Of a stretch of DNA of 4,771 nt, positions 1 to 4,771 are shown piece after piece. The notes below the pieces were generated by a model, which saw only the letters and a program-made list of their open reading frames with translations, did no database searches and had not been told where the DNA came from. Source of the stretch: a virus (Duplodnaviria; Heunggongvirae; Uroviricota; Caudoviricetes); the IMG/VR virus record IMGVR_UViG_2585427761_000018, one strand, 5' to 3'. The translations under genes were made by a program, and so were the position numbers. Positions within the stretch are counted from its first letter, which is position 1. Every line of letters starts with the position of its first letter.

Positions 1-272
1 CCAGCCGATAATGCTGCGACCGGTTTTCCGTCTTTCAGTGCCGGGGCGCAATTTCCTTTTTCGTGCACATGAAAACCATGAATGCCTTCAGACAGAGAGT
101 GAAGGGCTGGTGTGAACAGCAGACCGTAGGGGGTCTCCTGAATGGTTATTTTTCCAATGCTGACTTCTTTTCCGTCAGCACTGACAAGGTTCATTGGGAC
201 TTCCTGTTCTGCTGCGTATCCGCATGATGCTGCTGTCAGCATGGCAATGGCAGCAATGATTTTACATTTCAT
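1..272 (-). CDS. sodC: Periplasmic Cu/Zn superoxide dismutase, N-terminal 90 codons; gene continues beyond the left edge of the window
   Basis: Hand translation of the minus strand from the ATG at 272..270: MKCKIIAAIAMLTAASCGYAAEQEVPMNLVSADGKEVSIGKITIQETPYGLLFTPALHSLSEGIHGFHVHEKGNCAPALKDGKPVAALSAG. Hydrophobic N-terminal signal peptide, then the GFHVHE-KG-C motif and overall pattern of bacterial SodC (E. coli SodC has ...GFHIHAKGSC..., recalled from memory). SD-like GAGGG lies 4 nt upstream of the ATG on the minus strand (complement of about 277..281). Not in the supplied ORF track, presumably because it has no stop inside the window. Confidence 0.88.
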   Translation of the reverse strand, partial: MKCKIIAAIAMLTAASCGYAAEQEVPMNLVSADGKEVSIGKITIQETPYGLLFTPALHSLSEGIHGFHVHEKGNCAPALKDGKPVAALSA

Positions 273-393
273 AAAACCCTCATTAATTCCGTTAACAGAC
301 TGAGCTTGCTGGTTACAGGGTAACAAACAGCGTTCTGATGATATCGCGCAATAGCTGTGCAATATCCTATCACTGCGATTAATAATACCAATT

Positions 394-400
394 GAGAGGA
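394..400 (+). promoter_or_regulatory. Ribosome-binding site of J (GAGAGGA, 5-nt spacer to ATG at 406)
   Basis: Purine-rich Shine-Dalgarno-like motif at 394..400, directly upstream of the J start codon. Confidence 0.6.
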
Positions 401-405
401 ACATT

Positions 406-3400
406 ATGGGTAAAGGTGGCGGCAGGGCGCACACGCCGGTTGAGGCAAAGGACAATCTTAAGTCCACGCAGATGATGAGCGTGATTGATGCCATTGGTGA
501 AGGGCCGATTGAAGGTCCGGTGAAGGGGCTGCAGAGTATCCTGGTGAACAAAACCCCGCTGACGGACACGGACGGCAATCCTGTGATACATGGTGTGACA
601 GCGGTCTGGCGCGCCGGGGAGCAGGAGCAGACACCACTGGAAGGCTTTGAGTCCTCCGGAGCTGAAACCGGACTGGGCGTGGAAGTGACGAAGGCAAAAC
701 CGGTGACGCGCACCATTACATCCGCGAACATTGACCGCCTGCGGGTCACCTTCGGGGTGCAGTCACTGTTGGAGACCACCTCAAAGGGCGACCGTAATCC
801 CTCTTCTGTCCGACTGCTGATTCAGTTGCAGCGTAACGGTAACTGGGTGACGGAAAAGGATGTCACCATTAACGGCAAGACCACCTCACAGTACCTGGCG
901 TCGGTGATTCTGGAGAATCTGCCTGAGCGGCCCTTTAACATCCGGATGGTCCGGGAGACAGCGGACAGCACCCCGGACCAGCTGCAGAATAAGACGCTCT
1001 GGTCGTCATACACCGAAATCATCGATGTGAAACAGTGCTACCCGAACACGGCGATTGTGGGGCTGCAGGTGGATGCGGAGCAGTTTGGCGGTCAGCAGAT
1101 GACGGTGAACTACCATATCCGAGGTCGCATCATCCAGGTGCCGTCAAACTATGACCCGGAAAAACGCACTTACAGCGGCATCTGGGACGGCAGCCTGAAA
1201 CCGGCATACAGCAACAACCCGGCCTGGTGCCTGTGGGACATGCTGACTCACCCGCGCTACGGCATGGGAAAACGTCTGGGGGCGGCAGACGTGGACAAAT
1301 GGGCGCTGTATGCCATCGGGCAGTACTGCGACCAGACGGTCCCGGATGGTTTCGGGGGCACAGAGCCGCGGATGACCTTTAATGCGTACCTGTCACAACA
1401 GCGTAAGGCGTGGGACGTTCTCAGTGATTTCTGCTCGGCGATGCGCTGTATGCCGGTATGGAACGGCCAGACGCTGACGTTCGTTCAGGACCGCCCGTCG
1501 GATGTGGTGTGGCCGTACACCAACTGCGATGTGGTGGTGGATGATAACGGCGTGGGGTTTCGCTACAGCTTCAGCGCCCTGAAGGACCGCCACACGGCGG
1601 TGGAGGTGAATTACACCGACCCGCAGAACGGCTGGCAGACCTCCACGGAACTGGTGGAAGACCCGGAAGCCATACTGCGCTACGGGCGCAACCTGCTGAA
1701 GATGGATGCGTTCGGTTGCACCAGTCGCGGTCAGGCCCACCGTGCCGGGCTGTGGGTGATAAAGACCGGACTGCTGGAAACGCAGACGGTGGATTTCACG
1801 CTCGGGTCTCAGGGGCTGCGTCACACACCCGGTGACATCATTGAAATCTGTGATAACGACTATGCCGGGACCCTGACCGGCGGACGTGTCCTGTCCATTG
1901 ATGCTGCCACCCGCACCCTGACGCTGGACCGTGAAGTGACACTTCCGGAGACCGGTGCCGCCACGGTGAACCTGATTAACGGCAGCGGTAAGCCGGTGAG
2001 TGTGGACATCACCGAACACCCCGCGCCGGACCGGATACAGGTCAGTACCCTGCCTGATGGTGTGGAGACATACGGGGTGTGGGGACTCTCCCTGCCGTCA
2101 CTGCGCCGTCGCCTGTTCCGCTGTGTCTCCGTCCGGGAAAACACGGACGGCACCTTTGCCATCACGGCGGTGCAGCACGTACCGGAAAAAGAAGCCATCG
2201 TGGATAACGGTGCCCGCTTTGAGCCGCAGTCAGGTTCCCTGAACAGCGTCATCCCACCGGCAGTGCAGCACCTGACGGTGGAGGTGAGCGCAGCTGACGG
2301 CCAGTATCTGGCGCAGGCGAAATGGGACACGCCGCGGGTGGTGAAGGGTGTGCGCTTCAGTCTGCGCCTGACCAGTGGTAAGGGAACGGATGCCAGACTG
2401 GTGACCACCGCCATCACCGCAGACACGGAGCACCGTTTCAGCGGCCTGCCGCTCGGGGAATACACCCTGACGGTGCGGGCGATAAACAGCTATGGCCAGC
2501 AGGGTGAACCTGCCACCACCACCTTCCGGATTGCCGCACCGGCAGCACCGTCGCGGATTGAGCTGACGCCGGGCTATTTTCAGATAACCGCCACGCCGCA
2601 TCTTGCCGTTTATGACCCGACGGTACAGTTTGAGTTCTGGTTCTCGGAAAAGCGGATTGCGGATATCAGGCAGGTTGAAACCGCAGCCCGCTATCTTGGC
2701 TCGGCGCTGTACTGGATAGCTGCCAGTATCAATATCAAACCGGGCCATGATTATTATTTTTATATCCGCAGTGTGAATACTGTTGGCAAATCGGCATTTG
2801 TGGAGGCTGTTGGCCAGCCGAGTGATGATGCATCCGGCTATCTGGATTTTTTCAAAGGAGAGATAGGGAAAACCCATCTGGCTCAGGAGTTGTGGACGCA
2901 GATTGATAACGGTCAGCTTGCGCCTGATCTGGCTGAAATCAGGACGTCCATTACGAATGTCAGCAATGAAATCACGCAGACCGTCAATAAAAAACTGGAA
3001 AATCAGAGCGCGGCAATCCAGCAGATACAGAAAGTTCAGGTTGATACAAATAATAACCTGAACAGCATGTGGGCCGTGAAACTGCAGCAGATGAAGGACG
3101 GACGCCTTTATATTGCGGGTATCGGAGCCGGTATTGAGAATACGCCAGCAGGTATGCAGAGTCAGGTGCTTCTGGCTGCTGACCGGATTGCGATGATTAA
3201 TCCTGCGAATGGCAACACAAAGCCGATGTTTGTTGGTCAGGGCGATCAGATATTCATGAACGAAGTGTTCCTGAAATACCTGACGGCTCCCACCATTACC
3301 AGTGGCGGTAATCCTCCGGCATTTTCCCTGACACCGGACGGGCGGCTGACGGCGAAAAATGCCGATATCAGCGGTAACGTGAATGCGAACTCCGGGACGC

Positions 3401-3879
3401 TCAACAACGTCACGATTAACGAAAACTGTCGGGTTCTGGGAAAACTGTCCGCCAACCAGATTGAAGGCGATCTCGTTAAAACAGTGGGCAAAGCTTTCCC
3501 CCGGGACTCCCGTGCACCGGAGCGGTGGCCATCAGGGACCATTACCGTCAGGGTTTATGACGATCAGCCGTTTGACCGGCAAATTGTTATTCCGGCGGTG
3601 GCATTCAGTGGCGCTAAGCATGAGAGAGAGCATACTGATATTTACTCCTCATGCCGTCTGATAGTGCGGAAAAACGGTGCTGAAATTTATAACCGTACCG
3701 CGCTGGATAATACGCTGATTTACAGTGGTGTTATTGATATGCCTGCCGGTCACGGTCACATGACGCTGGAGTTTTCGGTGTCAGCATGGCTGGTAAATAA
3801 CTGGTATCCCACAGCAAGTATCAGCGATTTGCTGGTTGTGGTGATGAAGAAAGCCACCGCAGGCATCAGTATCAGCTGA
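406..3879 (+). CDS. J: Lambdoid phage host-specificity protein J (tail tip / central tail fibre), 1157 aa
   Basis: Single uninterrupted ORF. N-terminus [38 protein letters not shown]... and long internal stretches (e.g. [141 protein letters not shown]) closely match lambda J as I recall it. Size is close to lambda J (1132 aa). Followed by lom and stf as in lambda. Confidence 0.96.
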
Positions 3880-3946: not shown

Positions 3947-4546
3947 ATGCGTAGACTTTATGCCGCCATTTTGTCCGCAGCCATTTGTCTGGCCGTATCC
4001 GGTGCGCCTGCATGGGCGTCTGAACATCAGTCCACGCTGAGCGCGGGGTATCTTCATGTCTCGACGAACGTTCCTGGCAGCGATGATCTTAACGGGATTA
4101 ACGTGAAATACCGTTATGAGTTTACGGACACACTGGGGATGGTGACGTCGTTCAGCTATGCAGGAGACAAGAATCGCCAGCTTACCCGTTACAGCGATAC
4201 CCGCTGGCATGAAGATTCCGTTCGTAACCGCTGGTTCAGCGTAATGGCGGGGCCGTCTGTACGCGTGAATGAATGGTTCAGCGCGTATGCGATGGCGGGT
4301 GTGGCTTACAGCCGTGTGTCGACTTTCTCCGGGGATTATCTCCGCGTAACTGACAACAAGGGGAAAACGCACGACGTGCTGACCGGAAGTGATGACGGTC
4401 GCCACAGCAATACCTCTCTGGCGTTGGGGGCTGGCGTGCAGTTTAACCCGACCGAATCCGTGGCCATTGATATTGCTTATGAAGGCTCCGGCAGTGGTGA
4501 CTGGCGCACTGACGGTTTCATCGTGGGTGTCGGTTATAAGTTCTGA
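3947..4546 (+). CDS. lom: Lom-like outer-membrane beta-barrel protein (Ail/Lom/OmpX/PagC/Rck family), 199 aa; lysogenic-conversion cargo gene
   Basis: N-terminal signal peptide [24 protein letters not shown] with AWA|S cleavage motif. Internal [12 protein letters not shown] and SVMAGP...[12 protein letters not shown] motifs. C-terminus [26 protein letters not shown] ends in an aromatic residue as expected for an OMP barrel, and matches lambda Lom from memory. Sits between J and stf as in lambda. Confidence 0.92.
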
Positions 4547-4610: not shown

Positions 4611-4771
4611 ATGGCAGTAAAGATTTCAGGTGTACTGAAAGACGGCACAGGAAAACCGGTAAAGAACTGCACCATTCAACTGAAAGCCAGACGGACCAGC
4701 AGCACGGTGGTGGTGAACACGGTGGCCTCTGAAAATCCGGATGAAGCCGGTCGTTACAGCATGGACGTTGA
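4611..4771 (+). CDS. stf: Side tail fibre protein, N-terminal 53 codons; gene continues beyond the right edge of the window
   Basis: ATG at 4611 preceded by G-rich SD-like GGGGTG. Translation MAVKISGVLKDGTGKPVKNCTIQLKARRTSSTVVVNTVASENPDEAGRYSMDV is near-identical to the N-terminus of lambda Stf (orf-401) as recalled, and the gene sits immediately after lom as in lambda. Not in the supplied ORF track because it has no stop inside the window. Confidence 0.85.
   Translation, partial: MAVKISGVLKDGTGKPVKNCTIQLKARRTSSTVVVNTVASENPDEAGRYSMDV

Follow-up and report, generated by a model that had tools for sequence, protein, structure and literature searches.

Lambdoid prophages of Escherichia coli O157:H7 carry two nearly identical copies of a Cu,Zn superoxide dismutase gene, sodC-F1 and sodC-F2 (D'Orazio et al. 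2008, PMC2569942), which are distinguished by a single difference at nucleotide 335 that places either Leu or Pro at residue 112 (PMC2569942). SodC-F1 is dimeric and has an activity of 19380 U/mg, and SodC-F has been shown to be about three times as active as chromosomal SodC and to withstand protease and EDTA (PMC2569942). Upon fractionation, SodC-F is found both in the soluble periplasm and in association with the membrane, a distribution that fits its AASC motif and was complemented by a LipoP analysis (PMC2569942). The epitope-tagged protein has been detected, independently of RpoS, in cultures in log phase, in stationary phase, and under anaerobic conditions as well as during Caco-2 infection, with a relative enrichment in bacteria residing within Caco-2 cells, and a 299-bp fragment upstream of sodC-F drives lacZ, also in an RpoS-independent manner (PMC2569942). 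The phenotype described for prophage sodC in E. coli is sensitivity to H2O2, with no additive effect of multiple deletions (PMC2569942). Chromosomal E. coli SodC (1eso) belongs to the same enzyme family and to the same NCBIfam equivalog as SodC-F, and the mature proteins are approximately 61% identical; however, the chromosomal enzyme differs from SodC-F in being a monomer with RpoS-dependent expression and lower activity and stability (PMC2569942), and it has no association with a prophage. The prophages named as sodC carriers differ by source, being CP-933R and CP-933V in one study (PMC2569942) and Sp10 in another (PMC8046923).

Prophage-borne sodC genes have also been described in Salmonella. 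Gifsy-2 sodCI encodes a dimeric-type periplasmic Cu,Zn superoxide dismutase with 58–59% protein identity and is likewise antisense to the tail genes of its phage, but it resides in another slot, between a lom-like gene and L. A virulence role and regulation by PhoPQ are documented for Salmonella sodCI but not for its E. coli prophage counterpart. The closest positional parallel to the locus analyzed here is Fels-1 sodCIII rather than Gifsy-2 sodCI. The Fels-1 gene likewise lies antisense between tail genes I and J, with 144 bp to the J start as compared with 133 bp in the E. coli locus, although the protein is only 60% identical to SodC-F. The I and J genes of Fels-1 and the O157 phage share 72–73% DNA identity, whereas no blastn similarity was detected across sodC. 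The gap between sodCIII and I is 53 bp, shorter than that in the E. coli locus, and a hairpin resembling a terminator (AAACCGCCTCTGGGCGGTTT with a subsequent T-run; L004 4874–4893, tail-operon strand) lies directly before J, between the starts of sodCIII and J, without a counterpart in the E. coli cassette. Extra genes of this kind are known as morons, a concept of Hendrix and colleagues exemplified by lom and bor of lambda. Lambda lom and bor share with sodC an occurrence in some but not all related phages, the placement between conserved genes, a deviant base composition, and expression from the prophage, and sodC would, like them, have expression signals of its own.

The stretch of DNA analyzed here, referred to as the window, comprises 4,771 nucleotides of a caudoviricete (IMG/VR record IMGVR_UViG_2585427761_000018) and is identical to the entire draft contig JOQE01000084.1 (4771 bp; assembly GCA_000713935.1). 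Its left end, positions 1–272 on the minus strand, covers the 5′ half of sodC-F (codons 1–90 plus 2 nt), the prophage-borne periplasmic Cu,Zn superoxide dismutase of EHEC and related E. coli, as established by translation, matches to superoxide dismutases, and DNA identity to O157 prophages. The minus strand between 3 and 272 is free of stops for 90 codons from an ATG at 272–270, and the translation (MKCKIIAAIAMLTAASCGYAAEQEVPMNLVSADGKEVSIGKITIQETPYGLLFTPALHSLSEGIHGFHVHEKGNCAPALKDGKPVAALSA) opens with MKCKIIAAIAMLTAASCGYAAEQE and contains HGFHVHEKGNC further on. Residues 1–20 (213–272, minus strand) form the export signal, in which a Sec-type signal peptide, MKCKIIAAIAMLTAASCGYA, followed by AEQE, can be read by eye; a lipobox-like AASC (Cys17) and a signal peptidase I site between Ala20 and Ala21 are both included in the translation. 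The signal peptide is shared with sodC-F1/F2, including the AASC lipobox and the 20/21 cleavage site (PMC2569942), and the DNA is 100% identical to sodC-F1/F2 over positions 1–405, with no detectable difference. As nucleotide 335 lies outside the window, the F1 and F2 alleles are not assignable here; the full-length reference copy (L001) carries Pro112. The sodC gene of the window is an already known, experimentally characterized gene in a known arrangement.

Profile and structure comparisons place the 90-codon fragment in the SodC family. Pfam Sod_Cu (PF00080) matched the fragment with E = 2.4e-6 at 28.5 bits, marginally under the cut-off of 28.9, as the fragment spans just a third of the domain (profile positions 3–45 of 133), and the NCBIfam SodC equivalog NF007628 matched with E = 2.1e-24 at 86.4 bits (cut-off 165). 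Both scores remain below their cut-offs only because 85 codons are absent, and the full 175-aa ORF found elsewhere in 100%-identical DNA reaches 111 bits with Pfam and 214.9 bits with the NCBIfam SodC model, above the cut-off in each case. Among solved structures, Salmonella SodCI (1eqw, E = 5.4e-20) is the best match, and E. coli SodC (1eso) is matched with E = 5.8e-18. The active-site stretch (48–71, minus strand), defined by sequence and alignment, contains H68-V-H70 (nt 63–71), whose two histidines we take to be Cu ligands from established Cu,Zn superoxide dismutase structures, and Cys75 (nt 48–50), the disulfide partner of Cys171, which is encoded beyond the window. In the alignment, the H68-V-H70 and Cys75 columns are invariant in SodC-F, the allele of E. 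coli AF10, SodCIII, and SodCI. The full-length L001 copy additionally possesses His93, His102, His111, Asp114, His149, and Cys171, all of which align with the solved enzymes, and has the complete set of metal ligands as well as both cysteines. A sequence-only reading of the window had proposed a minus-strand Cu/Zn superoxide dismutase gene at its left end, to be checked by similarity to SodC/SodCI, and had regarded it as prophage cargo resembling that of O157 and Gifsy-2; the 90-codon frame and its matches to NF007628 and 1eqw bear out the former proposal, and the 100% identity of 1–405 to the O157:H7 prophage sodC region bears out the latter.

The 405 bp at the left end of the window match phage Stx2_EH2201 and a prophage of E. 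coli O157:H7 strain 8368 at 100% identity. A search of 5426 complete E. coli genomes located them in 547, at 100% identity in most of these carriers and at 99% identity or more in 542 records. Carriers include O157:H7, O145, O111, and O103 strains, poultry strains, and others, with up to five copies per genome; the L001 copy of sodC sits in a prophage adjoining tccP2, tRNA-Ser, and hyaA. In the matching complete genomes, sodC is a complete ORF of 528 bp (175 aa) and is annotated as such. The gene context to the left of the window was read from identical DNA in these other genomes, an exact look-up of the J protein having returned only JOQE01000084.1. As the window is a whole draft contig, position 1 is an assembly break, and it is for this reason that sodC appears cut. 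The contig ends, 1 and 4771, both fall within prophage genes that are present in several copies per genome (sodC and the N-terminal part of a tail fibre gene), and this repetition probably induced the breaks at both ends during assembly. Judging from the identical DNA elsewhere, sodC would be intact in the source genome, with 90 of its 175 codons lying in the window.

An alternative is that positions 1–272 represent a dead remnant, namely a sodC pseudogene truncated by deletion or rearrangement beside J. Such a remnant could account for a frame that shows 90 codons and runs off the window edge, and for a fragment that by itself scores just under the curated Pfam cut-off; however, the coincidence of position 1 with the end of the full draft contig JOQE01000084.1, the location of the other contig end likewise in a prophage gene repeated within genomes, and the fact that 100%-identical copies of these 405 bp in complete genomes continue into a full ORF make this explanation very improbable. 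Extension to the left, suggested by the sequence-only reading as a way to recover the rest of the gene, leads in the identical DNA of other genomes to an intact ORF of 528 bp that lies between I and J, so that the remnant without an intact ORF, which that reading had considered damaging to its proposal, is not what the identical prophage DNA contains. The further alternative of a chance ORF with spurious similarity to superoxide dismutase draws on the shortness of the fragment and has nothing else in its favor; it is already refuted by the SodC matches at E = 5e-20 and 2e-24, by the presence of the HVH copper ligands and the disulfide cysteine in their proper places, and by sequence identity to an experimentally characterized gene, and its probability is negligible.

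The matching genomes share the gene order H-M-L-K-I, a reversed sodC, and J-lom-tail fibre, in which gene I is intact and lies 190 bp beyond the sodC stop. The start codons of sodC and J are separated by the 133-bp stretch 273–405. In lambda, I extends to 15444 and the start of J is at 15505, leaving a gap of 60 bp, and the I–J spacer measures 851 bp in the sodC-F locus and 240 bp in VT1-Sakai. In VT1-Sakai, which is the Stx1 phage of strain Sakai and whose recorded I–J gap is without sodC, homology to L001 extends through I to L001 5631 and returns at L001 6394, corresponding to window position 394. Relative to this sodC-less phage, the sodC-specific insert comprises 762 bp (L001 5632–6393; window −368 to 393). 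Since the insert stops 12 bp before the J ATG, J keeps its own Shine–Dalgarno sequence; the J ribosome-binding region (394–405, plus strand; GAGAGGA at 394–400) lies outside the insert, and the upstream arm of the insert spans 273–393 (minus strand) with a GC content of 0.40. The corresponding slot of VT1-Sakai holds another filler of approximately 154 bp (L005 2834–2987), in the region of which a 39-aa sense-strand ORF (2805–2924) is directly followed by a strong terminator-like hairpin and a T-run (2926–2949, plus strand).

The base composition of the cassette also deviates from that of its surroundings. The GC content is 0.493 in 1–272 and 0.398 in 273–405, as compared with 0.569 in J (406–3879), and GC3 is 0.43 in the sodC fragment and 0.51 in the full sodC gene as compared with 0.67 in J and 0.62–0.70 across the tail genes H, M, L, K, I, and J. 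Presence or absence between the same conserved genes in related phages (sodC-F as opposed to VT1-Sakai and lambda), a base composition unlike that of the flanking phage genes (GC3 0.43–0.51 versus 0.62–0.70), and, as predicted here, expression signals of its own are the classic properties of a moron, and the sodC cassette, of approximately 760 bp, is a phage moron inserted backwards in the I–J spacer. The distances given by the sequence-only reading, 133 bp between the two start codons and about 60 bp between I and J of lambda, agree with the intergenic stretch and the lambda coordinates, and sodC is, as it had supposed, richer in AT than J, although J itself is uneven. Its placement of an antisense cargo gene in the I–J position is likewise correct, but its suggestion that I had been displaced is not, as I is intact; similarly, its description of sodC as convergently oriented applies with respect to the upstream gene I and not with respect to J, from which sodC diverges.

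A diverged sodC allele occupies the same I–J slot in the same orientation in E. coli AF10 (L006 2745–3272), with 80% protein and 79% DNA identity; alleles of this type are rare, with 6 records in the 60–80% identity band. The I–J spacer looks like a recurrent insertion slot. The sodC genes of Fels-1 and the O157 phage may stem either from one old insertion followed by fast divergence or from repeated capture in this slot.

Downstream of the cassette, J (406–3879, plus strand), which encodes the tail tip and host-specificity protein of 1157 aa, is intact in the window according to its ORF and six J-specific Pfam domains, and it is annotated as gpJ in the matching genomes. The second cargo gene of the window is lom (3947–4546, plus strand), which encodes an Ail/Lom outer-membrane beta-barrel protein of 199 aa (Pfam Ail_Lom, E = 1.9e-118) and lies in the sense orientation, whereas the sodC cassette is antisense to the operon. 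The start of a side tail fibre gene (4611–4771, plus strand), covering the N-terminal domain (PF08400, phage_tail_N) and recognized by translation and by the annotation of matching genomes, is cut by the contig end. J has a mosaic composition, with a GC content of 0.607 in 406–2600, 0.487 in 2601–3200, and 0.517 in 3201–3879, and no full-length match to it in complete E. coli genomes exceeds 97.3% identity, as compared with 100% for the adjoining sodC region, which together suggest recombination within J. Three long antisense ORFs of 208, 201, and 215 aa in the GC-rich part of J (1393–2877, minus strand) most likely represent shadow ORFs of the kind that GC-rich genes typically show. In two matching chicken E. 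coli genomes (H10 and H11), J is split by the IS21-like element ISEc12 (istA/istB), and strain 8368 (H1) and VT1-Sakai have a frameshifted or truncated J.

Several features of the cassette bear on how sodC-F might be expressed. A Shine–Dalgarno sequence, GAGGG (277–281, minus strand), is located 4 nt 5′ of the sodC ATG and is kept in the 80%-identical AF10 allele. A block of 32 nt (323–354) is identical in sodC-F and in the diverged AF10 allele amid variable sequence, and it is the best candidate for the core of the sodC promoter. The published 299-bp promoter fragment takes in 166 bp of J coding sequence, and for this reason it does not fix the location of the promoter. A consensus scan of both strands of L001 5400–6500 found no sigma-70-like site, and relaxing the criteria on the minus strand of 260–600 gave at best 8 of 12 matches with poor spacing (16–19 nt), none of them convincing; in the consensus scan, the J strand of the I–J spacer was equally free of such sites. 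At the other end of the cassette, a GC-rich hairpin with a 10-bp stem, GGTAAGGGGC-GGGC-CCCCTTACC, begins 7 nt past the sodC stop (L001 5715–5738; −19.4 kcal/mol, z = −2.8) and is followed by a weak T-run (TTATTCCTCA); it is predicted to be the cassette's own terminator. An Rfam scan of the whole window found no family at the gathering score. By analogy with Salmonella sodCI, a PhoP box was also considered; the 32-nt block contains one TGTTTG resembling a half-site, but the second half-site is poor and is not kept in the AF10 allele, and this candidate was rejected. Similarly rejected was an upstream ORF of 40 aa (269–391, minus strand), which has a TTG start and a TGA overlapping the sodC ATG (ATGA) and is probably not a gene, as it is without a Shine–Dalgarno sequence and a 1-nt indel disrupts its frame in the AF10 allele.

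These features would be compatible with a self-contained cassette consisting of an upstream region with its own promoter, a gene of 175 codons whose product bears an export signal, and a predicted hairpin terminator that immediately follows the stop codon. While the late tail operon is silent in lysogenic cells, sodC-F, whose expression in lysogens is documented (PMC2569942), would be transcribed from its own promoter up to the hairpin. The SodC-F protein is exported, anchored in part to lipid via Cys17, and assembled into a stable dimer that removes periplasmic superoxide (PMC2569942), and its activity would add to the oxidative-stress defence of the host. Late operons of the lambda type are read as one Q-antiterminated transcript. 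Upon induction, J would be reached only by such an antiterminated late transcript, which would pass I, cross the cassette in the antisense direction while ignoring the hairpin, and allow J to be translated from its retained ribosome-binding site. The absence of a promoter-like site before J implies that the late transcript must cross the cassette antisense, and mutual interference with sodC is therefore structurally plausible; antisense interference between late and sodC transcription may thus occur. The present analysis shows which gene this is and where it lies, together with the limits of the insert, the hairpin, and the deviating composition, and we infer the exact position of the promoter, the function of the terminator, and the late read-through. 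A literature search for O157 prophage-induction transcriptomes mentioning sodC yielded nothing usable. Taken as a whole, the account of sodC-F as an I–J cassette expressed in the lysogen and read through by the late transcript is very likely to be correct.

The backward placement might, in addition to serving the enzyme, have a regulatory role, in which sodC transcription in the lysogen, or its leakage through the hairpin into I, K, and L, would dampen stray expression of the tail genes or exclude related superinfecting phages, and in which late transcription would conversely shut sodC off upon induction. The antisense I–J slot is common to sodC-F, the diverged allele (80% aa identity), and Fels-1 sodCIII (60% aa identity), and Gifsy-2 sodCI is antisense to its tail genes too; moreover, J appears to depend on read-through, and a precedent is provided by STnc6030 of BTP1, an RNA that runs antisense to prophage tail genes and brings about superinfection exclusion (PMC7067206). 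However, the strong hairpin directly after the sodC stop argues against such a role, cargo cassettes are often antisense without any special function being needed, and the window contains a further cargo gene, lom, that runs in the sense direction; on balance, a regulatory role of the antisense placement is unlikely. The recurrence of the backward placement across phages of E. coli and Salmonella with SodC proteins diverged to 60–80% identity might be read more strongly still, as the outcome of selection for a coupling in which antisense transcription from sodC in the lysogen suppresses tail leakage or related phages and the late transcript, upon induction, collides with transcription of sodC and silences it, but this version is a somewhat fainter prospect than a regulatory role as such. 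The preferred reading remains that of a self-contained moron that is expressed in the lysogen and would be crossed by the late transcript upon induction.

Prophage sodC genes are a textbook example of lysogenic conversion that aids pathogens against oxidative stress, and in this respect the window adds nothing new, its gene having been characterized in 2008 and being already annotated across hundreds of genomes. What is gained in practice lies in the correction of a draft-contig annotation, in that the partial sodC reflects an assembly break and not a pseudogene, and in the description of the cassette boundaries. A regulatory effect of the antisense arrangement, if true, would be of moderate interest.
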